A stretch of 64,000 nt of DNA from Candidatus Micrarchaeota archaeon (lineage in GTDB: Archaea > Micrarchaeota > Micrarchaeia > Anstonellales > Bilamarchaeaceae): assembly GCA_043812915.1 (NCBI GenBank), contig JBDRLQ010000003.1:128047-192046 (forward strand), in the 5' to 3' direction. Position 1 is the stretch's first letter, and every line of letters begins with the position of its first letter. The position numbers and the translations under genes were made by a program. Positions 951 to 18,657 of this stretch are shown in pieces. The notes beneath the pieces are model-generated. The model worked only from the letters and a program-made list of their open reading frames with translations. It did no database searches and was not told the DNA's origin.

Positions 951-2000
951 ATGGATTCCCCTCAAAAATTCAGAAAGCTCAGGCATGATAGCATCTCCAG
1001 GAGAAGGAAGACAGGATACTCCATGGCAAAGTCCATGGTAGTTCCGCTGCTTTCATTTACAACATCAATTCTAGGCTGTGGAATGGGCGCGAGTACTGCT
1101 GATGGCAACAGGCCAGCAGTAACAGCTCCTGATAGCAACCATTCAAAAGCAAGACTAGGCCAGCAGTCGAAAGTGCCGACAGGCCCGGCAAAGCTCACTG
1201 CCCCTCCGGAAGATGAGGTTCTTCCGAACAAGAGGGTGGTAGAGCCAACCAAGAGCGCTGAGCCAAATCCGGATGAACATCCTGGAAAAAGAATGGAGCA
1301 GGTTGAGGATGCCATCTCCAATTTCTTCGGCGGAAGGGGAGAAAATGGCAGAATAAAGAGCGGGACAACCAAGAGCCGCAGCGAGATGCTTGATTTCATT
1401 GACAGCGCAAGATACCCGGAGAGTGATGGCAGCTCCGGAAAAAGGATGTTTCCAGGAGTTGCGGATGCGATAAGGGAGAATCCTCATTATAAGGGAAAAA
1501 GAGGGAGGGTTGCAAGGGCATTCCTGACTGCTTTTTCAGGAGAGAGGATCAGCCTATATAATTCCAGGGCCCTGCTTGAGAACATGCCCAGGACAGTAAC
1601 TGCATACATCGCACAAGCCATTGTAGGTGTTGGCAGGCTGGAAGATCTGCCAGAAAGAGATCCCAGACTGCCGCCCCTCGGCATGAGGAAGACCGCCTAT
1701 TGGTTCACGAATGATATTTCTTTCCTGGTTAGGCTCACTGGCCTGGTGGACCGGGAACCCGTGCACTGGGCATCACTTGATTCTGATTTGGAAAACAGCA
1801 TTCTGACCTGGCACAAGATGGGCCCCCAGACCCGCGAGCTTTGGAGGAGTGCAGGAGTAAATGCGCTCGTTGAGCCTCATGAACTGGCAAGATACGTCCG
1901 CGCCAAGATGAATAGGAGCCACCTGAAAGGGGTAGTTGGAGAATTCCCCCGTGAGCTGAACTACTACTGCCGCGATGATCTTGGAAAGTCAGGAAGATAG
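951..2000 (+). CDS. Hypothetical lipoprotein-like secreted protein
   Basis: 349-aa ORF. It has a basic N-terminus, then a hydrophobic segment ending in a lipobox-like SILGCG, then a Pro/Lys-rich disordered stretch and a globular C-terminal half. I recognise no family. Confidence 0.5.
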   Translation: MDSPQKFRKLRHDSISRRRKTGYSMAKSMVVPLLSFTTSILGCGMGASTADGNRPAVTAPDSNHSKARLGQQSKVPTGPAKLTAPPEDEVLPNKRVVEPTKSAEPNPDEHPGKRMEQVEDAISNFFGGRGENGRIKSGTTKSRSEMLDFIDSARYPESDGSSGKRMFPGVADAIRENPHYKGKRGRVARAFLTAFSGERISLYNSRALLENMPRTVTAYIAQAIVGVGRLEDLPERDPRLPPLGMRKTAYWFTNDISFLVRLTGLVDREPVHWASLDSDLENSILTWHKMGPQTRELWRSAGVNALVEPHELARYVRAKMNRSHLKGVVGEFPRELNYYCRDDLGKSGR

Positions 2001-2861
2001 CACTATTATCGCGGCTCCCAATACCATAAGAAGCGCGCCGGCAAAGCGCTTTAACAATCCTTTTTCTTTCAGGAGAACCCCTCCAAATATTACAGAAAAG
2101 AGGACTGACATCCTGTTTATAGAAATCACATAGGGCACAATCTGCAATGACCATGCGCTGAATGTGAGCGATGTCGCAATGACAAGCGCAAGGGCTGCCA
2201 GGGCAAATGCCCTCTTTTCTTTCCTGAAGCTTTCTACTATCGGCCTTTTCCTGAAAAATGAATAAGCGAGCAGCGCAGTTCCTGATGTCGTCAGGGCTGT
2301 TGCTGGAGTGAACATGAAATCAGAGTTGAGCATGGCAAGCTTGTCGAAATTGGCAAGGAAGGAAAAGAGGAGTGCCGTAATCAGCATGTATATCATGCCC
2401 CTGTTACGGATGATCTCCTCAAAAGGAGAGAGCAAATCATGCTTCGAATTCAGGTTGAGCACGTATGAGCCTCCGACAACAAGGAGAATGCCGAGAATGC
2501 CATCCGGATGCGGGCTCTCCCCGAGTATAATTGATGAGGTGAATATCAGGAAGAGCGGGGTGAATGCCAGCATCGGTATCGCGAGCGAAAGGTCTGTCAT
2601 CTGCAGTGCCCGGAAGTAGAGCGCAGCTGTTGCGATATTCAGCAGGACGGACATCGAGACCGCGAACAGGAACTGCTCTCCTATTTCAGGAAAGCCGTTC
2701 AGCGCTGACAGGGCCAGGAAAGAGAGCCCGGTCAGAAATAATGTCGCCCCGGAGACTATCAGCGGATCCACCCTGGAAACGAGCTTCTTGACCTCCATGA
2801 AATAGATGGCCACAAGAAAAGCGCCGCCAAGGGCGAAGAAGAACCAGAGCATAGCGACCAC
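1989..2861 (-). CDS. DMT/EamA-family membrane transporter
   Basis: 290-aa polytopic membrane protein with about 10 hydrophobic segments in two halves, typical of EamA duplication. Its 3' end overlaps the convergent 951..2000 gene by 12 nt. Confidence 0.65.
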   Translation of the reverse strand: MVAMLWFFFALGGAFLVAIYFMEVKKLVSRVDPLIVSGATLFLTGLSFLALSALNGFPEIGEQFLFAVSMSVLLNIATAALYFRALQMTDLSLAIPMLAFTPLFLIFTSSIILGESPHPDGILGILLVVGGSYVLNLNSKHDLLSPFEEIIRNRGMIYMLITALLFSFLANFDKLAMLNSDFMFTPATALTTSGTALLAYSFFRKRPIVESFRKEKRAFALAALALVIATSLTFSAWSLQIVPYVISINRMSVLFSVIFGGVLLKEKGLLKRFAGALLMVLGAAIIVLSS

Positions 2862-3337
2862 TACGATATTCCCTCGGCAATGGCGAGGAACTTGTCAACG
2901 AACTCATCGGCAACCTGCTTGTTTATCTCGAAGAGGGCATCGACATGCAGCAGGGCGGTCTCCGGGTCGTTCTTGCATAGAGACAAAATGAAAAGCGCCT
3001 TCTCCACTCTCGCGTCCTCCAGCATCTGCAGTGCCTTGAGCACCTCATAGCCTTTGGCATACCTCTTGAGCTCATAATAAGCGCATGCGAGGAAAACCCC
3101 GATTGCGACCATGTCCTCCTGGCTCTCAGCCAGGTTGAATGCCTTGTGCCCTTCGCGCAGGGCAGCGTTGAAGTTCTTCACGCGGTAGCACGACTTGGCA
3201 AAAAGATAGTGCGCCATGAGCGAGCCGGGGAACCCCTCCACGAATTCCTCGCTCAGCTGCACTGCCATCTCGTTATTCCTATTCTGGAGATAGAGGATAA
3301 TCTGCTTCACGAAGGAGTTTTCTCGCTCGAATATCAC
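2861..3337 (-). CDS. Hypothetical helical (TPR-like) protein
   Basis: The ORF is open to ATG 3415 (184 aa). That start would overlap the divergent gene and lie upstream of the shared TATA at 3353-3367. An in-frame GTG at 3337 sits about 27 nt from the TATA centre. ATG 3268 is another option. The sequence is helical with paired-helix character (AHYLFAKSCYRVKNFNAALREGHKAF..ACAYYELKRYAKGYEVL). Confidence 0.4.
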   Translation of the reverse strand: MIFERENSFVKQIILYLQNRNNEMAVQLSEEFVEGFPGSLMAHYLFAKSCYRVKNFNAALREGHKAFNLAESQEDMVAIGVFLACAYYELKRYAKGYEVLKALQMLEDARVEKALFILSLCKNDPETALLHVDALFEINKQVADEFVDKFLAIAEGIS

Positions 3338-3352
3338 AGGGTAACAACACAC

Positions 3353-3367
3353 AAAAAAATTAAATGG
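3353..3367. promoter_or_regulatory. Shared AT-rich TATA region (aaaaaaattaaatgg) between divergent genes
   Basis: ATG 3389 (+) and GTG 3337 (-) lie symmetrically about 27 nt either side of its centre. Confidence 0.4.
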
Positions 3368-3388
3368 TTTGGCATCCCTAATCCCATC

Positions 3389-3643
3389 ATGTTCGGCAGA
3401 CACAGCATCAGCCAATCCCCTGAAGCCAAGAAGAAGAGCCCCAGAGAGAGAAAGCGGGCCATGATAAAAGAATGCGAGAAGAAGTATGGGGTGAGCCTGA
3501 CAGAGGAGGAGCTTGACGGTCTGCTTGATGCGGCGCTTGGTAGTGGAGCGGTTTCCGGGGATACCAAGGGCAAGGTCAGGAAATGCCTGGTGGACAAGAT
3601 GAAGAAGGGAAAGGAATCAAAGATCCCGAAGAAAGGCAAATGA
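3389..3643 (+). CDS. Small basic hypothetical protein (84 aa)
   Basis: This is the downstream part of track ORF 3146..3643. ATG 3389 is about 27 nt from the TATA. Product: MFGRHSISQSPEAKKKSPRERKRAMIKECEKKYGVSLTEEELDGLLDAALG...KKGKESKIPKKGK. It lies immediately upstream of the DHH nuclease gene. An alternative start is ATG 3463. Confidence 0.3.
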   Translation: MFGRHSISQSPEAKKKSPRERKRAMIKECEKKYGVSLTEEELDGLLDAALGSGAVSGDTKGKVRKCLVDKMKKGKESKIPKKGK

Positions 3644-3655
3644 GGCATCATAAGA

Positions 3656-4957
3656 ATGTCTGAATTTCTTGAAAAGTGCGAAGAGGCCAGAAAGCTTGCT
3701 CTTTCTTTCAGCGAGCCGCTGATTGTGCACCATCACGACGCGGACGGCGTGAGCTCGGGGGCCATCGCGGTCGCGGCGCTGCGGGAGGCAGGTAGGAAGC
3801 CCAGGACCGAGTGCATAAAGAAGCTGGATGAGGCGTCCATTGAAAAGCTTGCGAATGAGAAGGAAATCATATTCACTGATCTGGGCGGGGGGAACCGGAG
3901 GGTTAATGAGCTCAATGACGTGCTCATCATAGACCACCACCAGACCGAAGGGATTGAAAAGCCGCAGATAAATCCCATGCTCTTCGGTATTGACGGGGGC
4001 GATGAGCTGAGCGCTTCTGGAACTGCTTACTGTGTTTTTCGAGTTCACGCTGACCTGGGAGTTGTCGGGGCGGTTGGCGATATGCAGTCTCCCCTGCGGG
4101 GCATGAACCGCTTTGTTATGGGTGAGGGGACCAAAAGCGGCGATGTGATGGTCGAGAACGACCTCCGTTTCTATGGAAGGTACTGCAGGCCGCTGGTACA
4201 GTTCCTCACTTATTCCGATGACCCCTACATACCGAATATCTCCTTTCGCGAGGACCGCGCCCTCTCGTTGCTATCAGAGCTCGGGATACCGCTGCTTGAG
4301 GGGGAAAGAAGGAGGGTGTATGCGGACCTTGATGAAGGTGAGAAGACAAAGCTAATCAGCGCGATAGCCAGAATCCTGATTAACACCAACCAGCTCAAAA
4401 AGACGAATGAGCTCCTTGGGGAGAGCTATGTTTTCCCCAAAAGGCCAAAGAACGAAACCTATGAGGCCAATGAGTTGAGCACCGTGCTAAATGCCTGCGG
4501 AAGGCACGGCCGCTCTGATGTCGGGCTGCGCATCTGCCTTGGGGATGAGGATGCGTATGCGGAGGGCAGGAAACTGCTGCAGCAGCACCGGAGGATGCTG
4601 AAGCAGGGGATTGAGTTCGCTTTGGGGAAGGTGCAGGATCTCGGCAGGTTCTATTTCCTTGATGGCAGGGGCGTGGTTGATGAAGGTATAATCGGAATCG
4701 TGTGCGGGATGGCACTCAGGCAGAGCTGGACAAAGCCAATCATCGGGATTTCGCTTGGGGAGAATGACACCATAAAGGCTTCTGGAAGGGCAGGGCGCGC
4801 TCTGGTGGAGGGAGGGCTCAACCTTGGGAAGCTGATGGGCGCTGCCGGAGCAGAAGCAGGAGGGATTGGCGGGGGGCACAGGATTGCCGCTGGAGCGTCC
4901 ATACCAAAAGGCTCCCTGAACAGTTTCCTAGTAGCCGTTGGAAAGTACTTCGGCTAA
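3656..4957 (+). CDS. DHH-family phosphoesterase, archaeal RecJ/Cdc45-like (GAN-type) nuclease
   Basis: 433 aa. DHH motifs are visible: HHHDADGVSSG near the N-terminus and LIIDHHQ. A C-terminal DHHA1-like GGGHRIAAGA is present. Size and layout match archaeal RecJ/GAN. Confidence 0.75.
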   Translation: MSEFLEKCEEARKLALSFSEPLIVHHHDADGVSSGAIAVAALREAGRKPRTECIKKLDEASIEKLANEKEIIFTDLGGGNRRVNELNDVLIIDHHQTEGIEKPQINPMLFGIDGGDELSASGTAYCVFRVHADLGVVGAVGDMQSPLRGMNRFVMGEGTKSGDVMVENDLRFYGRYCRPLVQFLTYSDDPYIPNISFREDRALSLLSELGIPLLEGERRRVYADLDEGEKTKLISAIARILINTNQLKKTNELLGESYVFPKRPKNETYEANELSTVLNACGRHGRSDVGLRICLGDEDAYAEGRKLLQQHRRMLKQGIEFALGKVQDLGRFYFLDGRGVVDEGIIGIVCGMALRQSWTKPIIGISLGENDTIKASGRAGRALVEGGLNLGKLMGAAGAEAGGIGGGHRIAAGASIPKGSLNSFLVAVGKYFG

Positions 4958-7628: not shown

Positions 7629-10583
7629 ATGGAACTGAACCTAAAGAAGATGGGGGCAATTGTTGCGGGTGCAACAATTTTGGCCAGCTCAGTCGGTTTT
7701 GCCGGACTTATGTTTGGTGACACCACGCTGGTGGACGACAACGGAGCCCCGTTAGCAAAAGTCGTCCTGGGATCAAAGAGTGCAGCACCTGATGGTGTGG
7801 CAGCTGGTCTCATCGCGGGAAAGATGGTGAGTGAATCGTATGCAGTTGAAGAACTCACCGCACAGGTCGCCGGAACCGCAACTTGCGGTGAGGGCAGCGG
7901 TACCGGAACAGGCACCGGAACTTGTGACATAGCCGATGAGAAAGCTAAACTCCAGATTACAGTACCTGGAAGCGCCATGGAGGGAACTTACACGGTCAAC
8001 AACTTGATCGGTGACTACCTCAACAGGAGGCTCAAGGACAGGGAAGACAATGTCGCAGGAGACTCTGACTCTGACTACCCGATGGGTGGCTCTGACGTCT
8101 CAGAGAACGCGAACCCGTTCACTGACGGCACTGGACCTGGCGGATCAATCGGCCCGAGCGAAACCTTCCTCTACAGGATTGATGGTGGAATGTTCTCTCC
8201 GTTCCAGACGCAGAACCTCGTCGATGACGATGCTGCGAGGAACTACGTCGAAGAGCAGAACATGTGGCTTCAGGGAGACAGCCACTACGATGAATCCCCA
8301 GAGGAAATCGTCGGTGACCTGAGATTCTTGGCATACACGCTCAAGTTCTCTGGCTCAGGTGATGACTTTGGTATCCCGGTGTGTACGACCCCTGATGGAA
8401 CAGACTATGCAGACTGTCTGCTTGGTGCAACTCCGCAGTCCCACTATGAAACCGCAAGCCACAAGGTAAGAGTATACTTCCTTGGCGAGCAGTGGGTCAT
8501 CAGCGACATGAGTCCGCCTTTAACGGCACTCACGTCCGAGACCTCGCTTGTTGATGGTGGATGGGTTAAGCTGGCAAAGGAGTCCATTTCTGGTGTTATC
8601 AACCAGGGTGAGGCACTTCCGGTCGATGACCTGAAGTTCCAGCTGGACGACCTTGAGGCACACGGTGACACGACCGCAGCCATTATCTCTGTCCTTGACG
8701 CGAACGGCAACGTTCTGAAAAAGGACAAGGTTGGTGAGGGTGATACGAAGGAATTCGCAATCGAGGGAACAACTTACAGGTTCCACGTATACAAGGTTGC
8801 ACCTGGTTACACCTTCGGCGCGAAGTGGGCTGATGTAGCTATCTACTCCAAAGAGCTCAAGCTCGAGGATGGACAGCAGCTGGACCCGGACTACGACAAC
8901 AACGAGTACTATGAGGTAGCTCTTGGATGGAAGAACAAGGGCGCTCAGGCTGGTGTTGACGAGCAGCCGGACTTCCTGAGGACCGCGGTGGTCTTCACAG
9001 AAGACATCGGATCAATCTCAAGCGGTGGCGAGGAGCAGTTCGAGGTTGGTGACTACCTGCCTATCGTGCAGGACCCGGTCGCCTGGAGGCTTACCTACCA
9101 GGGCCTGGACATTACCAACAGCGAGAGGACTTACCTTAGGTATGACCTCGAAAGGACAACTGACAAGACCCTTACGGCGAGCCACGGTCCTGTGACCGAG
9201 ACCGCAACTGGGATACGTGTTCAGTGTGACATCACAGCACCCTACGTAGAGGTCAAGTCTGGTGGAACTGGAACTATCTTCGAGATGACCGGTTCAACTG
9301 GTGAAGGTGACCAGGACACAACCCTTGCAGCAACCAGGTTCTATGTAGCAACCAATGGTGCAACTTGTGAAAATGACACAAGCGTTGTGGGTGGTGGATT
9401 CCCGGCTGGATGTCCTCTTGGTGTATGCCCTGCAGGTACTATCTTCATGACTCTCTCCCCGTCGTCCAACGACTATGGGCTCGAGGGCTATGATGAGGTT
9501 GCCGACGGCGGCGCAGCTTGTCCGAACGTATTCCTCAGCCAGGTGGTTGATTACAGCACCATTGGAGATGGTGACACCGACTGGTTGACTGGTGGTATGC
9601 TGGAAGTTTCAAGCTACCTCAGTGCGTCTCCTGCAGCTCAAGGATTTGCAGCAACGGACAACGGATGCAGTTACATGGGAGGCCTCAGGGCAGAGAACAC
9701 AACGCCCTGTATGTCCGACGGTGGAACTGACCCGAGGTGTTTCGGTGACGCGAGGCTGGTTGATGCAGCTGCCAATACCGACTGGTACTTCGGTCTGTCA
9801 GAGAAGGCAGGTGTGGATTCGTCCAACGACTTTGCGGACTACCACCTTGTAGGTCTTGACCTTGATGGTGGGGACTCAACCTTCAACTTCGACAGCCAGA
9901 CTGCCGGTGGTGACTACATCACCAGGGAGGACTACGAACTGTACATGTTCGCAGGACCTGTCTCAAACAGGGGCAACATCCAGACCCAGGAGGAAGGATT
10001 CATCTCTGAAAGGGGCTCTGTCTTCGATGACATCTCTGATACCTCAGTGAGGTATTACATGGCCGACGACCTTGCGTACTCTCAGTGGTACCTTTCGAGC
10101 GTTGAGCAGTCCGAAGCCGAGGCTGGCTCTGTAGTCAGGACCCTTGGTGAGGGCGAGGAAACAACCGTTAACGGCGTTACCGTTAAGGTCCTCGAAATCA
10201 CCGAGACTGTGCTGCCTTGTTCCGTTGGAACTGCAGCAACACCTGCGTGCGGACCTGCCGACATGAGTGGCGTTTCCGCGGTCATCATGCCGCAGAACAC
10301 CGCGACCGTAACCGCCTCGATTCCGTATGCATACAGCAGCTACGGGAACCTGGTTGTCCTTGATAAGGACGCGGTTGGCGTTAACACGCTCGTGTCTGTT
10401 GGTGGTGACAAGGTCAACACTGTAACCAAAGAGCTTCTCTCTGGTTCCGCAGTTGACTGGACAACTACCAAGAAGGTTGTGCGCGAAGTCGTTCAGGGCT
10501 CCAAGATTGTCGTCGCCGGTGCAGAATCCGAGGACACACTCGCAGCAGCTCAGGACTTCGTTAACCAGCTGAGGAGGGTGTAA
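7629..10583 (+). CDS. S-layer protein (Methanococcus-type N- and C-terminal regions)
   Basis: 984 aa. It has an N-terminal signal (LKKMGAIVAGATILASSVGFAG) followed by VVLGSKSAAPDGVAAGLIAGKM. The C-terminus reads LVSVGGDKVNTVTKELL...KIVVAGAESEDTLAAAQDFVNQL, resembling conserved archaeal S-layer termini. There are many Cys pairs and N-x-S/T sequons, and a strong T-rich terminator downstream. Confidence 0.75.
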   Translation: MELNLKKMGAIVAGATILASSVGFAGLMFGDTTLVDDNGAPLAKVVLGSKSAAPDGVAAGLIAGKMVSESYAVEELTAQVAGTATCGEGSGTGTGTGTCDIADEKAKLQITVPGSAMEGTYTVNNLIGDYLNRRLKDREDNVAGDSDSDYPMGGSDVSENANPFTDGTGPGGSIGPSETFLYRIDGGMFSPFQTQNLVDDDAARNYVEEQNMWLQGDSHYDESPEEIVGDLRFLAYTLKFSGSGDDFGIPVCTTPDGTDYADCLLGATPQSHYETASHKVRVYFLGEQWVISDMSPPLTALTSETSLVDGGWVKLAKESISGVINQGEALPVDDLKFQLDDLEAHGDTTAAIISVLDANGNVLKKDKVGEGDTKEFAIEGTTYRFHVYKVAPGYTFGAKWADVAIYSKELKLEDGQQLDPDYDNNEYYEVALGWKNKGAQAGVDEQPDFLRTAVVFTEDIGSISSGGEEQFEVGDYLPIVQDPVAWRLTYQGLDITNSERTYLRYDLERTTDKTLTASHGPVTETATGIRVQCDITAPYVEVKSGGTGTIFEMTGSTGEGDQDTTLAATRFYVATNGATCENDTSVVGGGFPAGCPLGVCPAGTIFMTLSPSSNDYGLEGYDEVADGGAACPNVFLSQVVDYSTIGDGDTDWLTGGMLEVSSYLSASPAAQGFAATDNGCSYMGGLRAENTTPCMSDGGTDPRCFGDARLVDAAANTDWYFGLSEKAGVDSSNDFADYHLVGLDLDGGDSTFNFDSQTAGGDYITREDYELYMFAGPVSNRGNIQTQEEGFISERGSVFDDISDTSVRYYMADDLAYSQWYLSSVEQSEAEAGSVVRTLGEGEETTVNGVTVKVLEITETVLPCSVGTAATPACGPADMSGVSAVIMPQNTATVTASIPYAYSSYGNLVVLDKDAVGVNTLVSVGGDKVNTVTKELLSGSAVDWTTTKKVVREVVQGSKIVVAGAESEDTLAAAQDFVNQLRRV

Positions 10584-10590
10584 TAACCCC

Positions 10591-10621
10591 CTTCTTTTTT
10601 TCTTTTTATTTTCCTTTTTTT
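10591..10621 (+). terminator. Oligo-T terminator after the S-layer gene
   Basis: cttctttttttctttttattttccttttttt immediately after the stop. Archaeal terminators are T-tracts. Confidence 0.6.
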
Positions 10622-10663
10622 ACTCCGCTCTTTCTGACCCTGTTTCCGGCCGTTGAGAAACCT

Positions 10664-10673
10664 TTTTAAATTC
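10664..10673 (+). promoter_or_regulatory. TATA-box-like element (tttttaaatt) upstream of the 10701 gene
   Basis: About 28-37 nt upstream of ATG 10701. A second AT-rich box lies at 10675-10691. Confidence 0.4.
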
Positions 10674-10700
10674 CTCTATACTTATATATAGTGGATTAAT

Positions 10701-11570
10701 ATGGTCAATTCTACTACTGAATCAAAGAACGAATCAAGGAAGCCAATCCAGAGGAAGCTCCAGAATGGTGCAGTTGGCGAGAAGGAGGACTCCGAGAATG
10801 GGGATTCCAAGAGGAAAAGCATCCTCAAGGCGCTCCCGCTGGTCTCGGCTGTCGCTGCGGCGAGCCTTTCATGCCATCTTGATGTCCTTCCGGCAGACGC
10901 TGGCCACGACGCTGGGCAGGACTCGGACGCCCCTGCCGATGCGGACCATGCTGATGCGGATGAGATTGAGGCTGATGTGGAAGCCGATGGCGACCTTGAT
11001 GCTGACATTGACGCGGACCTGGATGTTGATGCGGAGTCTGACGGCGATGTTGAAACCGATGGCGATGCGGATGCAGATGCCGACATGGAGCTTGACGGGG
11101 ACGTTGAGGCTGAGGGCGATGCTGATGTGGATGCAGATGCCGACGCGGATGCAGAGCTCGATGGCGACCTTGACGGCGATGCTGAAACCGATGCAGAAGC
11201 AGAGCTCGACGGTGATGCCCTGACTGATGGCGATGTTGAGGCAGATTCTGAAGCTGACGAGGAAGTTGATGGCTGCCCGTTAATCACGAACGATTCTGAG
11301 CGGGTGACGCTAACTGCGCTGGGCAGTGTGGTTCCAGTCGGAGCCTCGAACGTATCAATAATCCATCAGGGCGAATCCGGCCACATTGTGACCGTGAGGC
11401 TGGTTCTGACGTCCGACCCCTCAGTATTTATCTCGGATGCGGTTCCCTTGGGGAGCGGCCCTGGCCCGGTTGAAATCCCGATGTACTGCGGGGCCACTGC
11501 CACGGCAACGAGCATGACCGTAATAGGTGATGACCTCACAGTAACGATGGCAATAACCGGTGCGGACTGA
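10701..11570 (+). CDS. Hypothetical lipobox-bearing poly-Asp (alternating D-X) protein, paralog A
   Basis: 289 aa. It has a charged N-terminus, then a hydrophobic segment ending in ASLSC, then about 130 aa of D-X alternation (DADADADMELDGDVEAEGDADVDADADADAELDGD), then a ~95-aa non-repetitive C-terminal domain shared with the next gene. The opposite-strand and +2 ORFs are shadows of the repeat. Confidence 0.6.
   Translation: MVNSTTESKNESRKPIQRKLQNGAVGEKEDSENGDSKRKSILKALPLVSAVAAASLSCHLDVLPADAGHDAGQDSDAPADADHADADEIEADVEADGDLDADIDADLDVDAESDGDVETDGDADADADMELDGDVEAEGDADVDADADADAELDGDLDGDAETDAEAELDGDALTDGDVEADSEADEEVDGCPLITNDSERVTLTALGSVVPVGASNVSIIHQGESGHIVTVRLVLTSDPSVFISDAVPLGSGPGPVEIPMYCGATATATSMTVIGDDLTVTMAITGAD
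10881..11270 (+). repeat. GAY-NNN periodic coding repeat (alternating Asp array) in paralog A
   Basis: Asp falls at nearly every second codon over about 130 codons. All three forward frames and the reverse strand stay open. Confidence 0.8.
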
Positions 11571-11600
11571 TTCTTTTTTCTCTTTTTATCTTCATTTTCC
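11571..11600 (+). terminator. T-rich terminator after paralog A
   Basis: ttcttttttctctttttatcttcatttt directly after the stop at 11570. Confidence 0.5.
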
Positions 11601-11635
11601 CATATAATTTGTTTATTTGTGGGGAGTTATGACCA

Positions 11636-11691
11636 ATATTTATAAATGTTGTTATACATTAAACATTCTGATTTAATTTCAAAAAGGAGGG
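11636..11691 (+). promoter_or_regulatory. TATA-like box (atatttataaatg) plus Shine-Dalgarno-like GGAGGG upstream of paralog B
   Basis: TATA at 11636-11648. GGAGGG at 11686-11691 lies 7 nt before ATG 11699. Confidence 0.45.
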
Positions 11692-11698
11692 ATATTGG

Positions 11699-13531
11699 AT
11701 GAGTGGAAATGAAGTGATGAGGCAAGAGAGGACGCTACGGAATGGACAGATTGAGGGCCCAGCAAGAAATCCTGGCAGGTTTGAGAAAGCCGCGAAGAAA
11801 GTCGCGCCGTTTTTTGTCGGCACCACGCTTTTGGCCGGGGCGCTCAGGTGTAGCAGCAGCGGGGAAACCGGGCAGCCGGATGCAGGAACAACTGTTGAGC
11901 TTTGCTCGCAGGAGCCTGGCACATCGTGCAGCGCGCAGACATTCAATACTTTCCTTAACCAGGTAGCGGCCACTTTCAACCACGGCAACGGGCCAGTGGC
12001 ATTCGCCGTCTCACCTTCACTCAATGTGGAGACTCTTGATGTGATTGACCCCGAATCCGGAGTAATCAGCACCAAGAGAATCGTTTCAGCAAGGATTGCG
12101 ACCTTTGTGAGGGTCGATGTCCCAGAAGAGCGCGATGCCGGCGCTGATGCCGGCGACCTTATCTGCGGTGGCAGATGGGAAGTCGTGGAGCAGGCGAACG
12201 TTTATTCAGAAGAGGACGCAAGGGAGATGCGCGCACAGGGATTCGACGCTGTCGGAACCAGGCGCTACAACGCCCTTGGGACCGGGTATGATGTTACCCT
12301 CCTGAACCTTGATGAGGCAGTCCTCACTGATGAAGATGGCAATCCGATTCCTGATGCGGAGGGCAATATGCAGAGGACCTACGCGGTGGGCTTGAGGATT
12401 GACCCGATTTGCGATGGCGAGACCGTCGGCCCGACTGATGGCGATGCGGACGCAGACCTAGACGGAGATGTTGAGGCAGGCGGAGATGTCGACGCAGATG
12501 CGGACATGCATGATGCCGATGTCCTGCCCGATGGCGATATCGTAACTGATGGCGATGCGGATTTGGATGCCGACACGGACAGCGTGGTGGACGCTGACGG
12601 CGATGGCGGTGTCGTCTGCGAGACGAGGGATCACACATGCAACACCGAAAGGCTTGCTGAAGGATGGCTCTCTGCCGGAGAATATTTCATAATGGGAACC
12701 CGCAGGTTCCAGCTTGTCGAGCTTGAGACTGTCGGCGCATATGTGGAGGCAACCTACCGGGTCACCGACAACTGCGCAACCCCGATTCCGGGGCTTGGAG
12801 GGAGCGCCCACATAGGCGAGGAAACGGTACTTGAGAGCGCAGGTGAGGAATCATCCTACACAGTCAGGATAACTGATGTCGTAGGCGGCTCTGTCAGGTT
12901 CGAGGTTGATGAGAACTGCCCGGGAGATGTCACTGATGGCGATGCTGATGTTGACGCTGACGCGGATGCCGACATGGGCCTTGACGGGGACGTTGAGGCT
13001 GACGGCGATGCTGATGTGGATGCGGATGCAGACGCTGATTCGGAACTGGATGCGGATTCCAGCCTTGACAGTGATGTTGAGGCTGACAGCGATGCAGACG
13101 CTGACGCGGATTCAGGATTTGACGCCGATGCCGAAACCGATGTGGATGGGGGTTCGGATGCCGATGCAATAATCCCTGATGCCGATACGGACTTCGATGC
13201 GCCTCTAGGGGCATGCGACGGACTGACAAACGGGGAAGAGAGAATCCGTGTGTTTGCCGAAGTTCCGCGCCACGCACCAGTATCTCCTGATCAGGTTGAA
13301 GACAGTCATATCTCAGTCTATCCGGTCTCAACTGACGACCGGAGCGCCGTTCTAAGGATGGTCCGGACTGATGACCTGTCTGTTGCGGTCTCCGGAGACT
13401 TCGAAGTGTGGGTGGCAACCCCCATAAGGGTGGGGGTTTGCGGCGGAGACGCAACCTTCACAGCAACCACTGTCCTGGGCCGTCAGGTTGAGAGCACTGT
13501 CTCGATTACCGGACTTCCGCCAAGGCCATAG
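11699..13531 (+). CDS. Hypothetical lipobox-bearing poly-Asp (alternating D-X) protein, paralog B
   Basis: 610 aa. It has an N-terminal hydrophobic segment ending in AGALRC, two globular Cys-containing domains, two D-X arrays, and a C-terminal domain alignable to that of paralog A (C..LTN..ER...CG..AT.T..TV.G....ITG). Confidence 0.6.
   Translation: MSGNEVMRQERTLRNGQIEGPARNPGRFEKAAKKVAPFFVGTTLLAGALRCSSSGETGQPDAGTTVELCSQEPGTSCSAQTFNTFLNQVAATFNHGNGPVAFAVSPSLNVETLDVIDPESGVISTKRIVSARIATFVRVDVPEERDAGADAGDLICGGRWEVVEQANVYSEEDAREMRAQGFDAVGTRRYNALGTGYDVTLLNLDEAVLTDEDGNPIPDAEGNMQRTYAVGLRIDPICDGETVGPTDGDADADLDGDVEAGGDVDADADMHDADVLPDGDIVTDGDADLDADTDSVVDADGDGGVVCETRDHTCNTERLAEGWLSAGEYFIMGTRRFQLVELETVGAYVEATYRVTDNCATPIPGLGGSAHIGEETVLESAGEESSYTVRITDVVGGSVRFEVDENCPGDVTDGDADVDADADADMGLDGDVEADGDADVDADADADSELDADSSLDSDVEADSDADADADSGFDADAETDVDGGSDADAIIPDADTDFDAPLGACDGLTNGEERIRVFAEVPRHAPVSPDQVEDSHISVYPVSTDDRSAVLRMVRTDDLSVAVSGDFEVWVATPIRVGVCGGDATFTATTVLGRQVESTVSITGLPPRP
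12437..12610 (+). repeat. Alternating Asp array 1 of paralog B
   Basis: DGDADADLDGDVEAGGDVDADADMHDADVLPDGDIVTDGDADLDADTDSVVDADGDGG. Confidence 0.8.
12926..13198 (+). repeat. Alternating Asp array 2 of paralog B
   Basis: DGDADVDADADADMGLDGDVEADGDADVDADADADSELDADSSLDSDVEADSDADADADSGFDADAETDVDGGSDADAIIPDADTDFD. Nucleotides 12962-13023 are about 90 percent identical to 11073-11134. Confidence 0.8.
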
Positions 13532-13560
13532 TTTTCCTTTAGTTTTTTTCCTTTATTTAT
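13532..13560 (+). terminator. T-rich terminator after paralog B, merging into the TATA-like ctttatttat of the next gene
   Basis: gttttcctttagtttttttcctttatttat. ATG 13586 lies about 27-30 nt from the AT-rich core. Confidence 0.45.
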
Positions 13561-13585
13561 CCAAACGGGTTGGGTGTTGCCTTCC

Positions 13586-15070
13586 ATGAGCTCAAAACTA
13601 CAAAAAAGCCGGAATCTGTCTACAGAAATCAGGAACCCGAATCGCAAGTTCGGGACACGCACAACCCTAAAGGAGTCCATTCTTCTTTCTGCCGCTTCAA
13701 TTGCGGCGACAGTTATATTCACGCTCAGCCCTGCATACGCGCAGAGCGCCAAATGCAGCGCGCGCGTCGTTCCTGGGGAAATTGGAGAGCGCTTCTCGCT
13801 AAAGACAAGCGGAACGAAAGTTGAAGGGCTGACACTGAGGTTTTCCATCCCTGTCAAAGGCTCGCACGGGGAGCTGGCAATCAGCGGGCCCTTCGCGGAC
13901 AGCCTTGTCACAATGCCTGAAGATGTAAGATTCACCGTCCTGAGCAGCAACCTCACAAAGGGCAGGACCCTTCTTTCCTCATCGCGCAGGGCGACATTCG
14001 GATGCATTAGCGGGGATTCAGAAGCCCCGAGCCCTGTTCCAATAGAATCAATCCAGAAGCTTGTTCGTGAAGCTGGGAGCAGGATGAAGCAGCTTGATGC
14101 AACGAGGAAACTAACAGGGGTAAGCTCAAAGACCAAGGGCGATGTTTCAACATTCATATCAAAGCGCGGGCCCCTGATGTCCGCAATCAAGGGCCGTGAT
14201 ATCCCTGGTTTGCAGAGGGCAATCGAGCAGGCAGATTCGCACCTTCTGACCATGAGGTCTGAAGTGGATGCATCGGCCCAGGCGATAAAATCAGAGGCGC
14301 TTGATTTGTCCAGGCAGCTCCGCGAAGCTGCCTCAGAGCTTCCGGAAGGGAGGCAGAAAAGGGCTGCAATCCAATTGGCAGACTCTGTTGAGGCGGAGGC
14401 GGGCCGGGACCAGGTTCGCGTAAGCGCGCTTACAAAGGGCATGGCGAGCATTGGGCGCGCGATTCCGCAGGCCCGGGATGCGGCCGACGCTGCGCGGGAG
14501 AGGCAGGCGACCGCAGACGCAGCTGAAAAGGCACAGGCGGATGCCGCTGAAAAAGTTCGTGTTGAAGCAAGGACGGAAGCTGCAAAAGTGCATGGAATGG
14601 ACAGATGCACGGGGGATTTCCCAGTAAGCATAATCACAGGAAAGGGCGCGGTGGAGAGATATAAGCTCGCTGTTCCGCTTAAGCTTGTCGTGGAGTCCGG
14701 AGGCACTGCGACAAAGGATGGCACGGACCACCCGATAAGGGCCGTCCTGGAGGTTAGCGCCAAATCCATCCTTCCTCAGCATGTCAAAGGCACAATCGAA
14801 TCTGCCACAAAGACAATCAGAAGGAGCCTTGATACAAGATGCCCGGCTGGAAATCCGGCTTCAATCGAAGTAATCGAAACGAATCTGGGAGTTGCCATCA
14901 TGGGACTCCGAAACAAGATGATTAGCAAAATCGATGGCATTACGGCTGATGAGGATGGCAATCCGGAGCGCCCTCTGCTCCTGAAAGTGAGGGGGCTTCT
15001 TGCCGGCAGGTCGAAGGCCGAGGAAGATGCCGCAATATCTGCCGCCAAGCAGAAAGCAGGTGTCCGGTAA
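13586..15070 (+). CDS. Hypothetical secreted protein with a central Ala/Glu/Arg/Lys coiled coil
   Basis: The track ORF starts at GTG 13574. ATG 13586 fits the TATA spacing. The signal-like segment is ESILLSAASIAATVIFTLSPAYAQS. Beta-rich flanks surround a central helical region (ATADAAEKAQADAAEKVRVEARTEAAKV). The 428-aa minus ORF 13483..14769 is a Ser/Ala-rich shadow. Confidence 0.5.
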   Translation: MSSKLQKSRNLSTEIRNPNRKFGTRTTLKESILLSAASIAATVIFTLSPAYAQSAKCSARVVPGEIGERFSLKTSGTKVEGLTLRFSIPVKGSHGELAISGPFADSLVTMPEDVRFTVLSSNLTKGRTLLSSSRRATFGCISGDSEAPSPVPIESIQKLVREAGSRMKQLDATRKLTGVSSKTKGDVSTFISKRGPLMSAIKGRDIPGLQRAIEQADSHLLTMRSEVDASAQAIKSEALDLSRQLREAASELPEGRQKRAAIQLADSVEAEAGRDQVRVSALTKGMASIGRAIPQARDAADAARERQATADAAEKAQADAAEKVRVEARTEAAKVHGMDRCTGDFPVSIITGKGAVERYKLAVPLKLVVESGGTATKDGTDHPIRAVLEVSAKSILPQHVKGTIESATKTIRRSLDTRCPAGNPASIEVIETNLGVAIMGLRNKMISKIDGITADEDGNPERPLLLKVRGLLAGRSKAEEDAAISAAKQKAGVR

Positions 15071-15115
15071 GCCCTTTTTTCTTTGATAATGCCTTTCAGG
15101 CCTTGGCGCAAGGCC
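15071..15115 (+). terminator. T-tract followed by a perfect 7-bp hairpin (ggccttg-gcg-caaggcc)
   Basis: gcccttttttctttg at 15071-15085. The inverted repeat at 15099-15115 lies directly before the next TATA. Confidence 0.4.
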
Positions 15116-15116
15116 G

Positions 15117-15127
15117 CTTTTAAATAT
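15117..15127 (+). promoter_or_regulatory. TATA-box-like element (cttttaaatat) upstream of the lysine-free ORF
   Basis: Its centre is about 26 nt upstream of ATG 15148, so the mRNA is predicted to be leaderless. Confidence 0.5.
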
Positions 15128-15147
15128 CTTTGTTCCTTATCTTTTTC

Positions 15148-17238
15148 ATGGCAGCGCCACCACAACCTCGCGGAATACAGTGCACTGTTGCTATCCAGGA
15201 AATGAATGCCCAGGAGGCCTCCAGGGCAATGGCGAACCCGTTGCAGCGCGAGGGGGAGCGGATTTCAGTCCGTCTGGTTGTCCCGGCAAGGACCGGCTAT
15301 CTTTCCGCCGAGATCCCGGCACAGGCGGTGAATGAGGTGCTTGATTGGGCCTCACATATCCAGAGCCCGCAGGATAGGCGGGATTTTATCAGCCAGTGGC
15401 TCAGCGACAATATCGCGCGCATCAGGCGTGCCCATGACGGCGCCGCCAGGGATGCAACTGCCTTCGATTTCAGCGTTGTTCCTGTCCGGGAAGTGCGCAT
15501 TGTGCGCAGTATCGAGGATATAGTCCCAAGTCTGACTTTCGATCCCACCGCCATTGCCGCGCTCGTTGCCCGGGATGGCCAGGTGGCGGTAGCGAGCCGG
15601 GACACGCGCATATTCTCCGAGAGACGGCAGGCGCTTACTACTTTGGGCAGGGGAATCGGCCGCCTGCTCAGGCTCCACCAAAGAACCAGCGGAGGGCTCA
15701 ACCAGGATCAGATCAGGCTTCTTATCGGCCAGGTCCCTGTCGATCAGATAGAAACACTCCTCCGGCCGCTCGGCCTTGAGCGCAGGGACAGTGCAGCACT
15801 GCAGGAACTGCTTGCAGGTGGCCAGAGGACAACCGCCGGCGATGTCGTGATGGTGCCCGGAATCATCGTGAGAATAAACCAGCTGATGATGGACGAGCCT
15901 GAAAGGGACAGGATTTCCCCGGTCACCCTTGACCGGCGCGCCGCTGATGAGGCAAGGGAGCGCATGACTGAACTCCGGCGCATCGGAAGCGCTGAGGGGA
16001 GAGCGCTTGCCACCAGCATCGAGCGGGCCATCGGAACAGTCCGGAGGCCGCAGCTGCTTTCACTTATAGAGGATGCCGACAGGCTAATCAGCGCCGCTGG
16101 GAGCAGGGACGAAGCTGCTGAAGTCGCTGCAGTGAGGCAGGCAAGCGAGCCTGCACGGACTGCCGCCTCCCGCCTCAGGGAACTTGCCAGGGATACGAGG
16201 GTCGGAAATCTCATGGCATCTGCAACCGTCGCTGCCCTCTCAATCCAGCAGGAACTCGGGCGCGAGGCTCCAAGGTCATCCAGGCTAAGGCAGCTCACAA
16301 CAGAAGCACAGTTACTAATCACGCGCATGGAAGCTGCCATAGCATCGGCCGAAGAGGCTGCTGGAAGGCAGGCTTTGCTTACAGAAAGGCGGGGAATCGC
16401 GCAGGCCAGGATAGCAACCATAGACGGGCTGCAGTCCCAGGATGGGGTTACTCCGGCGCACAGGAGGTCTGCAGCAGCCCTGCTAAGCCAGCTCCGCGCC
16501 GCAAGGGAAGGAACGGATGCCGCACTCCTGCAAAGGAGAGTTGCCGAGGCGGACACCCTGATTGCGCTTTTGCGCGCTGACATTGACAGGCATGCTGCCC
16601 GGGCCCCGCCCGCAGCGCCAACCGGCACCCTGAGGCAGCCCACTGCCGTTGCGGCAGAGCACAGCCAGCTCCTGCAGGAATTCGCCAGGCTCCTCCATCG
16701 GCGCACTGACTTCTACTCCCGCCGCCGGGAAAATCCGATAGTGCTTCACCTTGCGAACCTGTCAGAAACCTACCGGGTTGATGCTGGCGATGTCCTCTAT
16801 GACGGCGGAGTGAGGGAAGCATCCCTCGATTATGAGGGACAGACATTCAGGTATCTTACATTCATTACCGCGGCCGATGTCAGGCAGGTCTATCGTGGCC
16901 TTCCTGAGAGATACAGGACAGCTGCACGGGATGCCCGATTCCGTCCTGCCGGTGCTTCTGCCCTCAGCATGCTAGCGCTTCCTTCGGCCCGTCAGGGCGC
17001 TTCTCCTACTGTGGACGGAGAATTGCTCGAGCAGATACGCACCAGGCTCACAACGCAGTATCTTGCCCAGGCCCGCCGCGCTCTTGAGGCGGCAGGGCTC
17101 AATATGGGTACAAGGATTCAGCTGGAAGGCGGTGCGGAAAGGACCATCGGCCAGATTGTCCAGGACCAGGTTACCGAGGCGGTCCGCGGCGTGCTCCAGG
17201 ATATCACCACAGTTACTACAATAAGGATGGAGCCGTGA
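15148..17238 (+). CDS. Hypothetical large Ala/Arg/Leu/Glu-rich helical protein with no lysine
   Basis: The track ORF begins at TTG 15130. ATG 15148 fits the TATA. I find no K anywhere in the 697-aa product and see no signal peptide. The region is GC-rich and carries a 320-aa shadow ORF on the minus strand. I recognise no family. Confidence 0.55.
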   Translation: MAAPPQPRGIQCTVAIQEMNAQEASRAMANPLQREGERISVRLVVPARTGYLSAEIPAQAVNEVLDWASHIQSPQDRRDFISQWLSDNIARIRRAHDGAARDATAFDFSVVPVREVRIVRSIEDIVPSLTFDPTAIAALVARDGQVAVASRDTRIFSERRQALTTLGRGIGRLLRLHQRTSGGLNQDQIRLLIGQVPVDQIETLLRPLGLERRDSAALQELLAGGQRTTAGDVVMVPGIIVRINQLMMDEPERDRISPVTLDRRAADEARERMTELRRIGSAEGRALATSIERAIGTVRRPQLLSLIEDADRLISAAGSRDEAAEVAAVRQASEPARTAASRLRELARDTRVGNLMASATVAALSIQQELGREAPRSSRLRQLTTEAQLLITRMEAAIASAEEAAGRQALLTERRGIAQARIATIDGLQSQDGVTPAHRRSAAALLSQLRAAREGTDAALLQRRVAEADTLIALLRADIDRHAARAPPAAPTGTLRQPTAVAAEHSQLLQEFARLLHRRTDFYSRRRENPIVLHLANLSETYRVDAGDVLYDGGVREASLDYEGQTFRYLTFITAADVRQVYRGLPERYRTAARDARFRPAGASALSMLALPSARQGASPTVDGELLEQIRTRLTTQYLAQARRALEAAGLNMGTRIQLEGGAERTIGQIVQDQVTEAVRGVLQDITTVTTIRMEP

Positions 17239-17280
17239 TTTTCCGGCATCTCTTTATTCTTTTTATCCCTAATCATCAGC

Positions 17281-17847
17281 ATGGCAAACAGGGCTACTAT
17301 CCAGGAAGAGGTTGTTCGGACTGATTTGGATTTTGTTCCGGTTGATACCAGTTCGACGCAGGAGCAGCGCAGGGAAACCGCGCTGACGCTTGTTGATGAA
17401 CTGCAGGGAAGGCTCCATTCAGCCAGGAATCTGACGAATGCGGACCGGCTCAGGATATTCGATTCCTTATCGGGTCTTGAGGGCGCTGTAGCAGCGGATG
17501 ACAAGGATGGGATGATGGAAGAAATGGCAACTGCGCGGGCCCTTCTGCGCAGGCTTCCGCTGCCACATCCAGGCGGGTACCCTCCCAATGTGGAAACAGG
17601 CACCTTTGAAGAGCAGGATTTCAGGGACACGGCCCAGATGTATGAAGTTAACCTGAGCGGGCAGATTGATGAACTGCGCCAGAGCGGACTTCGGCTCGTT
17701 GTAATGAATTACGCAGAGGAGATTATCAGGCGGCTCCACAACGAGTCCGGGCGCCAGCCGCTGAACAGAACCGCGATAAACGAGCTCATCCAGGAGGCTG
17801 AAGGCATCTCCAGGCAGATTGAGGAAATCATCACTGCAAATCGCTAG
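17281..17847 (+). CDS. Hypothetical 188-aa helical protein with a single lysine
   Basis: Preceded by a T-rich/TATA-like tctttattctttttatccc at 17250-17268. Its composition resembles the upstream lysine-free protein. I recognise no family. Confidence 0.45.
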   Translation: MANRATIQEEVVRTDLDFVPVDTSSTQEQRRETALTLVDELQGRLHSARNLTNADRLRIFDSLSGLEGAVAADDKDGMMEEMATARALLRRLPLPHPGGYPPNVETGTFEEQDFRDTAQMYEVNLSGQIDELRQSGLRLVVMNYAEEIIRRLHNESGRQPLNRTAINELIQEAEGISRQIEEIITANR

Positions 17848-17893
17848 AGGGTTTTTGGCGGACAATCGTTTGCGGCGCTCGTGGCAACCTTAT

Positions 17894-17903
17894 CATTTAT
17901 AAT
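17894..17903 (+). promoter_or_regulatory. TATA-box-like element (catttataat) upstream of the Zn-ribbon gene
   Basis: Its centre is about 27 nt upstream of ATG 17926, so the mRNA is predicted to be leaderless. Confidence 0.45.
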
Positions 17904-17925
17904 CCATCGACTCCCTTATCTGGTG

Positions 17926-18657
17926 ATGGGCAGGTGCATCCGCTGCGGCAGGGAAGGCCATATGGAATACGGCAGTGATGGCCAGGCCTACTGTGGTTCC
18001 TGCGTGTTCTATGGGATGAACAAACCATGCTGGAGGTGTGGGATGTATGTTCCTGCATCAGAGCTCCAGCAGTACAAGGGGCAGTGGATGTGCCCGATAT
18101 GCATAGGGGATGCCAGGGCGGCGGACGCGCGCGTGAGCTACAAAGAGCCGACATACAAGAAAAATGATTATCCTATGCAGGTGCATTCCTACGAGGAGAC
18201 TTGCGAGAAGTGCGGAAGAACTCTTGTCACGGTGTACATCCTCAACGGGAAGAAGCTCTGCTGGACATGCCTGCATGAGGAGCAGGACAAGTGGACAATC
18301 GTTGGTGGGGAGAAGCCGCCGACCGTGCCTATGAAGATGACTGTCGAGGCGCAGAGGAAATCCGCGCTCAGGAAATTCTTCGAGCACGTATTCTCCGAAT
18401 TCCTCGCATTGTTCGGGGTGAGGTGGAAGCCCCGGGAACCAGTCTCGCAGGTTGTCGCGCTCAAGGCAACGCAGTCAAAGAGGCCCAGGCGCTCCTTCGG
18501 CAGGCCGATGGTGTCTGGGATGAGGAAGGAGCGCGAGGATGCGGTTCCAAGCACAGAGGGGATAATCAAGGGGAAGCCGAAAACGCCCCGCAAGAAATCC
18601 TCCGACGTAACCTTCCCGGAATACCAGAAAAAGGACAAAAAGAAGGATAAAAAATGA
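17926..18657 (+). CDS. Hypothetical multi-zinc-ribbon protein with a Lys-rich tail
   Basis: The track ORF starts at GTG 17881. ATG 17926 (MGRCIRCG) fits the TATA. CxxC pairs are CIRCG..CGSC, CWRCG..CPIC and CEKCG..CWTC. The C-terminus reads KGKPKTPRKKSS..KKDKKKDKK. Confidence 0.55.
   Translation: MGRCIRCGREGHMEYGSDGQAYCGSCVFYGMNKPCWRCGMYVPASELQQYKGQWMCPICIGDARAADARVSYKEPTYKKNDYPMQVHSYEETCEKCGRTLVTVYILNGKKLCWTCLHEEQDKWTIVGGEKPPTVPMKMTVEAQRKSALRKFFEHVFSEFLALFGVRWKPREPVSQVVALKATQSKRPRRSFGRPMVSGMRKEREDAVPSTEGIIKGKPKTPRKKSSDVTFPEYQKKDKKKDKK

Follow-up and report, generated by a model that had tools for sequence, protein, structure and literature searches.

The envelopes of DPANN archaea, organisms attached to host cells, are poorly understood; the Micrarchaeota among them are episymbionts. 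The described design closest to the proteins reported here is the tethered lipoprotein, in which a signal peptide leads to a Cys and a low-complexity linker then carries a folded domain, as in bacterial proteins with Lpp-type sorting linkers and in the archaeal lipobox proteins on which AliA/AliB act. Bacterial lipoproteins are known to have disordered linkers at the N-terminus (bioRxiv 10.1101/2021.01.05.425367), and both predicted lipoproteins and the candidate lipidation enzyme AliA are reported to be prevalent in DPANN archaea (PMC12462473). We analysed a 64,000-nucleotide stretch of a Candidatus Micrarchaeota genome (hereafter the window; GenBank assembly GCA_043812915.1, contig JBDRLQ010000003.1, positions 128,047 to 192,046), in which two genes on the same strand, here called A (10701..11570, +; 289 amino acids) and B (11699..13531, +; 610 amino acids), lie immediately downstream of the gene for an S-layer protein. 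A encodes an extended signal peptide ending at Cys58, an (Asp-X)n array and a C-terminal beta domain; B encodes an extended signal peptide ending at Cys51, an N-domain, a first array, a middle domain, a second array and a C-terminal domain. The archaeon has at least three such cell-envelope proteins, which are paralogues and restricted to its lineage. The reading we favour, with moderate confidence, is that both are lipid-anchored and that their arrays form a disordered polyanionic tether bearing a variable binding head. A and B would then provide concrete candidate envelope lipoproteins for a phylum whose lipoproteins have been predicted but not studied.

Compared with known tethered lipoproteins, A and B have a signal peptide about twice the usual length with a semi-conserved motif in its n-region, a degenerate lipobox (Arg or Lys at position -1 in B and its orthologue), a predicted lipidation and a linker that is a strictly alternating polyanion of up to 130 residues. 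The design looks like a known one, and what looks new is the orphan head, the strict alternation of the linker and a clade-specific association with an S-layer gene. The linker is an unusually clean natural case of its kind, and it recurs in lipobox-type metagenomic proteins and in YqiJ-type proteins. If the arrays are merely spacers, the addition to lipoprotein biology is modest; if they link the membrane to the S-layer or mediate host contact, they matter for DPANN cell biology.

Other described proteins share single features with A and B. The SD-repeat stalks of the staphylococcal Clf/Sdr MSCRAMM proteins likewise place Asp at every second position and form a spacer between anchor and binding domain, and they were the only NCBIfam matches for the arrays (E ~1e-13 to 1e-14, in the repeat region only). 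With scores of 40-53 bits against cut-offs of 999-2500, no LPXTG motif and no A-domain, A and B are not members of that family. Where the stalks have Ser, A and B have Ala, Gly or Val at X, hence no glycosylation sites, and the anchor is an N-terminal Cys rather than a C-terminal LPXTG; we take the resemblance to be analogous, not homologous. Very similar arrays, for example DADVDADADIDADADVDADAD, occur in YqiJ_N/NfeD-associated inner-membrane proteins (PF21001; P0009, P0013, P0024, P0029 and P0031), in which, by contrast, transmembrane segments flank the array on both sides and an NfeD-like domain comes after it at the C-terminus. Neither A nor B matched PF21001. Long D-X arrays, some with His at X, were seen between the first two transmembrane segments in seven proteins of the YqiJ_N/NfeD type (those five, P0014 and P0019). 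The literature searched contained no description of a role for these arrays and nothing specific on alternating-Asp linkers in archaeal lipoproteins or YqiJ.

Weiner & Hood reportedly proposed in 1975 an (Asp-Y)n model of acidic mollusc shell-matrix proteins. In that model alternating Asp residues form a one-sided carboxylate array on an extended strand, the same idea as was raised for the present arrays in an earlier, sequence-only reading of the window; the organisms and context differ, there is no evidence of mineralisation in Micrarchaeota, and X in A and B is mainly Ala, not Ser or Gly. Finally, the SlaB stalk proteins of Sulfolobales resemble A and B as membrane-anchored, elongated proteins encoded beside an S-layer gene. 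SlaB combines beta domains with a trimeric coiled coil and ends in a transmembrane helix, whereas A and B would be anchored at the N-terminus, lack a coiled coil and are missing in most Micrarchaeota.

Signal segments, arrays and head domains

Residues 1-58 of A (10701..10874, +) comprise a 43-residue n-region rich in Lys, Glu and Arg, containing the sequence RKLQNG, and then ALPLVSAVAAASLS-C58, a 15-residue h-region that ends in ASLS-C58, the putative lipid-attachment Cys. Residues 1-51 of B (11699..11851, +) are built alike, with 34 charged residues containing RTLRNG followed by VAPFFVGTTLLAGALR-C51, which comprises a 15-residue h-region and AGALR-C51. Each protein has a single N-terminal hydrophobic segment, and each shows the charged n-region followed by 15 uncharged residues expected of a lipoprotein. 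With full-length A we retrieved proteins of the same architecture, compared their contigs, and examined 18 members of the family. A Cys stood at the end of the h-region in 18 of 18, at positions ranging from 19 to 59. The residue before it was G, S, A, T or N in 15, and K or R in the two B orthologues; for P0023 it is ambiguous (I or S), since GICSSC offers two candidate Cys. The mature Cys count was odd in 17 of the 18, which fits one modified Cys plus disulfide pairs. As the h-regions (13-17 residues across the family, typically ~15) are too short for a stable transmembrane helix, we counted them in favour of a lipoprotein-like anchor. The invariant Cys also supports the predicted export of A and B.

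Many members share a semi-conserved motif, R-[KT]-[LVI]-x-[ND]-G, located ~25-35 residues before the h-region; its variants include RKLQNG, RTLRNG, RTLQNG, RKVADG and RKVGDG (A, B, P0008, P0005 and the B-like protein of L065). By analogy with the ESPR or YSIRK motifs, it possibly marks an extended signal peptide region, and the family offers an extended type of signal peptide whose n-region has a conserved motif. Elsewhere in the window, the open reading frame (ORF) at 951-2000 (+; 349 amino acids) has a 28-residue charged n-region followed by a canonical SILG-C lipobox, while the S-layer protein and an acidic 746-residue protein at 21925-24165 have short n-regions. In this genome, lipobox proteins seem to be the ones with long n-regions.

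The same n-regions could instead belong to an uncleaved signal anchor. A and B would then be type II membrane proteins, with the Cys not lipidated and the n-region remaining in the cytoplasm. The great length of the n-regions (34-45 residues), their semi-conserved motif and a non-canonical lipobox, whose -1 position is Arg or Lys in B orthologues, speak for such an anchor. However, the shortness of the h-regions, the Cys at the end of every one of them and the odd number of mature Cys speak for a processed lipoprotein, and canonical boxes (V-A-G-C, I-L-G-C) follow equally long n-regions in some relatives and in the ORF at 951-2000. We regard a signal anchor as unlikely, though it is among the stronger of the competing readings.

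The arrays follow the same rule in both proteins. A has one of ~130 residues (residues 61-190; 10881..11270, +), and B has a first of 58 (residues 246-303; 12434..12607, +) and a second of 92 (residues 409-500; 12923..13198, +). The longest strict run, at residues 88-173 of A, consists of 43 unbroken [D/E]-X dipeptides (86 residues); 20,000 shuffles of the segment gave none longer than 20 residues. Position X is taken by Ala > Gly > Val > Leu > Ser/Thr and never by a charged residue, and no higher-order periodicity beyond 2 was found in the arrays. The underlying DNA is no simple repeat: Tandem Repeats Finder reported periods of 6, 12 and 18 with matches of 66-88%, and GAT and GAC as well as the four Ala codons are mixed. 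On a charge-hydropathy plot the arrays fell on the disordered side and all other segments on the folded side. Between orthologues the array sequence diverges freely while the alternation and the class of X residue are kept; in homologues Pro is also present at X.

One element of the arrays departs from this drift. The island DADM-E-LDGDVEA-E-GDADVD in the array of A (11076..11140, +) has a counterpart, DADM-G-LDGDVEA-D-GDADVD, in the second array of B, and the form DADM-x-LDGDVEA-[DE]-GDADVD is kept in A, B, P0008 and P0005 (twice in the last) with many synonymous differences. The 65-nucleotide tracts at 11076-11140 in A and 12965-13029 in B are 94% identical, compared with ~70-75% in the flanking array DNA. 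This suggests a small gene-conversion patch; the tract may also be a functional site of the array, or both. Recent slippage or gene conversion was rejected as the origin of the arrays as a whole: outside this one tract, inter-array DNA is ~70-75% identical with many synonymous differences.

Lys is nearly excluded from the mature proteins. A has none and B has one (K126); the 16 family members with D-X arrays have 0-2, whereas two L062 paralogues with other linkers have 10 and 3. The net charge of full-length D-X members ranges from -48 to -101. Halophily was considered as a cause of the acidity and low Lys content and rejected, since cytoplasmic proteins of the window contain 5-13% Lys and have mostly near-neutral to basic isoelectric points.

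The C-terminal domains of A (residues 191-289; 11271..11567, +; two Cys, C192 and C263) and B (residues 501-610; 13199..13528, +) are paralogous, with 30% identity over 103 residues (E=7e-7) and common motifs near the start (C..TN..ER) and the end (CG..AT.T..TV.G....ITG). A local hidden Markov model (HMM) identified those of A, B, P0008 and the A and B orthologues of L069 as homologous, at E 1e-5 to 1e-7 before inclusion. AlphaFold2 predicted the domain of A, from a three-sequence alignment, as an eight-stranded all-beta fold (pLDDT 87.5, pTM 0.77). A Foldseek search with this model gave no match at E<0.01 in PDB or BFVD (best E-values 0.16 and 0.012), and a likeness to domain I of the flavivirus E protein, the best at a TM-score of ~0.63, was treated as generic beta-barrel similarity. 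B has two further non-repetitive segments, a Cys-containing N-domain with no assigned fold (residues 52-245; 11852..12433, +), which B-like proteins from L069 and L065 retain, and a middle domain (residues 304-408; 12608..12922, +). MAFFT suggested the middle domain as an extra copy of the C-terminal domain, but BLASTP (E=0.23 and 5.2) and hhalign (nothing) gave no support, and we rejected it.

Searches beyond the family returned little. The non-repetitive parts of A and B had no above-threshold match in Pfam or NCBIfam, and PDB sequence searches with the C-terminal domain, the N-domain of B and its middle domain had none. Array-masked B retrieved only itself from 5.8 billion clusters in a word-indexed search. 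When an HMM profile of the A/B C-terminal domain was searched exhaustively against 1.84 billion representative proteins, it matched A, B and two proteins discarded as spurious sums over repeats (an ankyrin protein and one of Bacteroidetes type, in which 17 near-identical repeats stand in tandem). A five-sequence profile of the same domain found no homologue, and a viral-contig scan with A found no relatives.

Most of this anatomy had been anticipated by the sequence-only reading. Its two ORFs at 10701-13531 and their position beside the S-layer gene hold, as do its array lengths (~130 residues in A, ~58 and ~90 in B) and its count of one Lys in ~820 residues after the signal segments. The shared C-terminal domain, and with it the paralogy, was borne out both by the pairwise alignment, with the motifs as it described them, and by profile searches with that domain alone, which reached no known family. 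A charged segment and a hydrophobic helix ending in Cys (ASLSC, AGALRC) are likewise present in both proteins; judged as a lipobox, the residues before the Cys are borderline in A and fail in B, which has Arg at -1.

Family distribution and a proposed tether

The Micrarchaeota family defined here combines an extended signal leading to a Cys, an acidic alternating array and a Cys-bracketed C-terminal domain of ~100 residues, a description that A and B fit. A third paralogue in the same genome, the B-like P0008 (475 amino acids), lies on another contig (L064), away from the S-layer gene. In a related Micrarchaeon (L069) the gene order is RNase Z, S-layer protein, A orthologue, B orthologue and then an orthologue of gene C, which follows B in the window. 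L065/L066 has the 3' end of an S-layer gene followed by three genes of the family (245 amino acids, 279 amino acids and B-like), L068 has an S-layer 3' end followed by two, and in L067 a B-like gene comes after an A-like one.

L062 is a more distant Micrarchaeon (DP2 polymerase 60% identical to that of a Micrarchaeota metagenome-assembled genome, MAG), in which five clustered paralogues (10001-18307) do not lie near an S-layer gene. In this cluster one type of C-terminal domain, with the consensus VC.G..N...G..Y.G.PV.VGGY...N.G...GGI.V.I.CG...DGK.I.L.N.S..A.VAN..I.VE.L, is joined to the lipobox Cys in three ways, through D-X arrays, through a linker rich in Gly (15412-16083) or through one rich in Pro and Asp (10878-11498); one member has two copies of the domain. 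The linker is thus interchangeable among paralogues. Homology between this domain and the C-terminal domain family of the window was rejected (hhalign probability 0.5%), the architecture alone being common to both, and the C-terminal domains of P0005, P0007, P0016, P0023, L065_245 and L067_438 are, like those of the L062 paralogues, not detectably homologous to it. Near the L062 cluster (1-3656) we also noted giant Beta_helix/NosD-repeat proteins (1185 and >2800 amino acids). Such proteins are typical surface candidates in DPANN archaea, and one of the two shares 53% identity with a protein encoded in another Micrarchaeota locus (L016).

D-X arrays also occur directly after a lipobox-like Cys in unrelated metagenomic proteins (P0010, which has an FGE-sulfatase domain, P0017, P0018 and P0030). 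The neighbourhood of P0017, the only one of these that was checked, is bacterial (OmpA, alpha-2-macroglobulin, PEGA kinases).

These observations argue for a spacer role of the arrays. The linker can be exchanged among the L062 paralogues; array sequence drifts freely while its pattern is conserved; Pro is tolerated at X in homologues; the arrays recur right after the lipobox-like Cys of unrelated proteins; and lipoproteins are known to carry disordered N-terminal linkers. We propose that A and B would be exported through their unusually long signal peptides (~50-58 residues, a charged n-region and an h-region of 13-17 residues), and that the invariant Cys is most likely modified by the archaeal lipoprotein pathway, tethering the protein at the outer face of the cytoplasmic membrane. 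The (Asp/Glu-X)n arrays, with X being Ala, Gly, Val, Leu, Ser or Thr, would not be folded Ca2+-binding repeats. They would instead be polyanionic spacers, 60-130 residues long, that are intrinsically disordered and stiffened by their charge, with about one negative charge per 0.7 nm when extended. Such spacers could hold the small Cys-bracketed beta domains off the membrane, beneath or within the S-layer, and from polyelectrolyte theory they would be expected to condense divalent cations there. The heads would be rapidly diverging binding modules, and in B-type proteins additional domains would be strung on two spacers.

Several points weigh against this tether. Expression, cleavage and lipidation are predictions from sequence. 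The S-L-S-C of A fits the residue classes of PROSITE PS51257 but departs from the canonical L-[AS]-[GA]-C; Arg at -1 in B violates both, and the L069 orthologue has Lys there. Cys58 and Cys51 also fall outside the rule that a lipobox Cys lies within ~35 residues of the N-terminus. The disorder call for the arrays derives from composition only, the head model from just three aligned sequences, and the single-sequence AlphaFold2 model of full-length B (pLDDT 38) is unusable. Further, a pure spacer does not explain why the alternation is so strict, why the island is conserved across paralogues and genomes, or why the exclusion of Lys extends to the folded domains.

Competing readings of the arrays and heads

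The family diverges very fast when set against the genes around it. RNase Z of the window and that of L069 are 75% identical and the S-layer proteins 78%, compared with 40% for C and 32% for both A and B. This rate, much higher than that of the S-layer gene next to it, marks the orphan beta domain as a possible interaction or recognition module, and one reading makes this its centre: the tether would project the head to or through the S-layer, where it would bind a host or serve as a viral decoy or target, and this would drive diversifying evolution and paralogue turnover. The tandem multi-copy arrangement, the variable copy number, the different heads on one chassis and the lineage-restricted distribution all agree with it, and DPANN surfaces are considered in the literature to mediate host interaction. 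Yet fast evolution equally fits weak constraint, the reach of the head to the S-layer exterior is a supposition of this reading, and the Pfam and Foldseek searches detected no adhesin-type domain. The population of the window is also present in GCA_043826765.1 (L001) and SRR26275510 (L002), with one single-nucleotide polymorphism in 5.9 kb; this one change leads to V264A at an array X position of B, and the A protein is identical. A role in host contact seems improbable to us, about as much so as the signal anchor discussed above.

Another reading starts from the neighbouring gene and is somewhat weaker still. As an S-layer strut or anchor, the protein would have a lipid-anchored N-terminus, an array crossing the pseudo-periplasm and a C-terminal domain docked on the inner face of the S-layer, doing the job of SlaB in Sulfolobales, possibly with divalent-cation bridges. 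The S-layer protein of the window has no obvious membrane anchor after signal cleavage, and by our estimate the contour length of 60-130 residues would suffice for some 20 nm. S-layer anchoring in Micrarchaeota is an open question, and one proposal involves a second stalk protein (bioRxiv 10.1101/2021.04.28.441871). Location divides the loci. The sequence-only reading had drawn its possible roles (divalent-cation capture, a bridge from S-layer to membrane, binding to a mineral or host) from the adjacency to the S-layer gene, and this adjacency recurs in L069, L065/L066 and L068, where family genes stand directly 3' of the S-layer gene as in the window; it fails for P0008 and for the L062 cluster. 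It also fails in ten Micrarchaeota loci that share the synteny of RNase Z, S-layer protein, an intervening gap, Zn-ribbon gene and aIF2-alpha. The S-layer proteins there are 46-53% identical to that of the window, and their gap holds homologues of C and D only, with no D-X array protein. In addition, ~30% identity in the C-terminal domain against 78% in the S-layer protein is unexpected for an obligate structural partner, and gene C, which lies downstream and is conserved, would suit the role better. We therefore consider a strut doubtful.

Genes C (13574-15070) and D (15130-17238) themselves have divergent homologues between the S-layer and Zn-ribbon genes in ~10 distant loci (L005-L018), and they are better candidates than A and B for a conserved module associated with the S-layer. 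Besides a long n-region and an h-region, C has a cleavage-like site (AYA|QS) and a middle part rich in Ala, Lys and Glu. D lacks Lys altogether in its 702 residues and contains 13.4% Arg.

Divalent-cation binding or storage, or mineral templating, could be the primary function rather than a by-product of spacing. With Ca2+ or Mg2+ bound, the array would be an extended beta structure with one all-carboxylate face. Strict alternation with small or aliphatic X residues is the pattern of an amphipathic beta strand, the conserved island within the arrays contains DGD, and polyelectrolyte theory would place the charge density at the level of divalent counter-ion condensation. The array of A, and no other part of A or B, also gave matches to the beta-helical families Bactofilin (PF04519; 22.7 bits against a threshold of 27.9) and DUF2807 (18.5 against 24.2), but both lie below the gathering thresholds. 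Like the arrays, DxDxDG loops, thrombospondin type 3 repeats and RTX beta-rolls are short extracellular repeats rich in Asp and containing Gly, and the sequence-only reading had pointed to a loose likeness to the first two. This likeness did not stand. DxDxDG is not enriched, with one occurrence in A where 2.4 were expected and two in B where 4.7 were; the full type 3 motif DxDxDGxxDxxD is absent from both, as is the RTX nonapeptide GGxGxDxUx, and there is no periodicity beyond 2. Pro at X in homologues and a Gly-rich linker in place of the array in one paralogue also speak against a primary cation-binding role, and the arrays are predicted as coil, if in a low-confidence model. This role ranks a little below the strut, and we think it improbable.

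No more probable is a bolder combination of these ideas, in which the (Asp-X)n lipoproteins of this clade would be the missing connectors between membrane and S-layer: Ca2+/Mg2+-condensing struts would set the width of the pseudo-periplasm, and heads would dock on the lattice or reach the host. Were it true, it would be a new, non-coiled-coil solution to archaeal S-layer anchoring.

That the arrays are a non-coding GAY-GCN simple-sequence tract with frames open by chance, for which one might cite a 201-residue Ser/Ala ORF on the reverse strand (10682-11287) and low-complexity matches to SD-repeat adhesins, is refuted by the comparative data and can be set aside: the ORFs are intact with the same order of signal, array and domain in several genomes at ~32% identity, the non-repetitive domains are conserved and confidently modelled, promoter- and terminator-like elements flank each gene, and the array codons are heterogeneous. 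Variation of the repeats as non-coding DNA, which the sequence-only reading had named as the outcome that would undo it, was not seen; the alternation persists in the ~32%-identical orthologues.

Gene boundaries, transcription signals and neighbouring genes

The S-layer protein gene (7629..10583, +; 984 amino acids; PF05124 S_layer_C 45.4 bits, TIGR01564 25.7 bits) is followed by a T-rich tract (10590-10621, +) between its stop codon and a TATA-box-like element, TTTTTAAA (10663..10670, +), ~30 bp 5' of the ATG of A. This spacing suggests a leaderless or short-leader transcript for A. A T-rich, archaeal terminator-like tract lies 3' of the stop codon of A (11571..11602, +). Upstream of B are a second TATA-box-like element, TTTATAAA (11639..11646, +), and a Shine-Dalgarno-like GGAGGG (11686-11691, +) 8 nucleotides before the ATG; another T-rich tract follows its stop codon (13532..13562, +). 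With a TATA-like box and a T-rich tract each, A and B look like independently transcribed archaeal genes, and the placement of the promoter-like elements indicates that their long N-termini are probably genuine.

The reverse-strand Ser/Ala-rich ORF that overlaps A (-) is the complement of the GAY-GCN array and no gene. Codon usage differs along the window: GC content at third codon positions is 0.57-0.64 in genes A-D and 0.66-0.73 in the housekeeping genes, and the GAT:GAC ratio is higher in A-D. The S-layer gene has a strong preference for GAC (GAC:GAT 65:22).

The window encodes archaeal RecJ, RNase Z, a split RpoB, RpoA'/A'', aIF2-alpha and a tRNA. The closest relatives of its RNase Z, at 47-63% identity, are from Candidatus Micrarchaeota MAGs only. 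RNase Z, the archaeal RecJ and the split RNA polymerase B subunit identify the host as an archaeon, and the nearest genomes are all Micrarchaeota MAGs. The tRNA (24183-24303, -; 121 nucleotides), presumably intron-containing, scored 55.8 bits against Rfam and was missed by ARAGORN.

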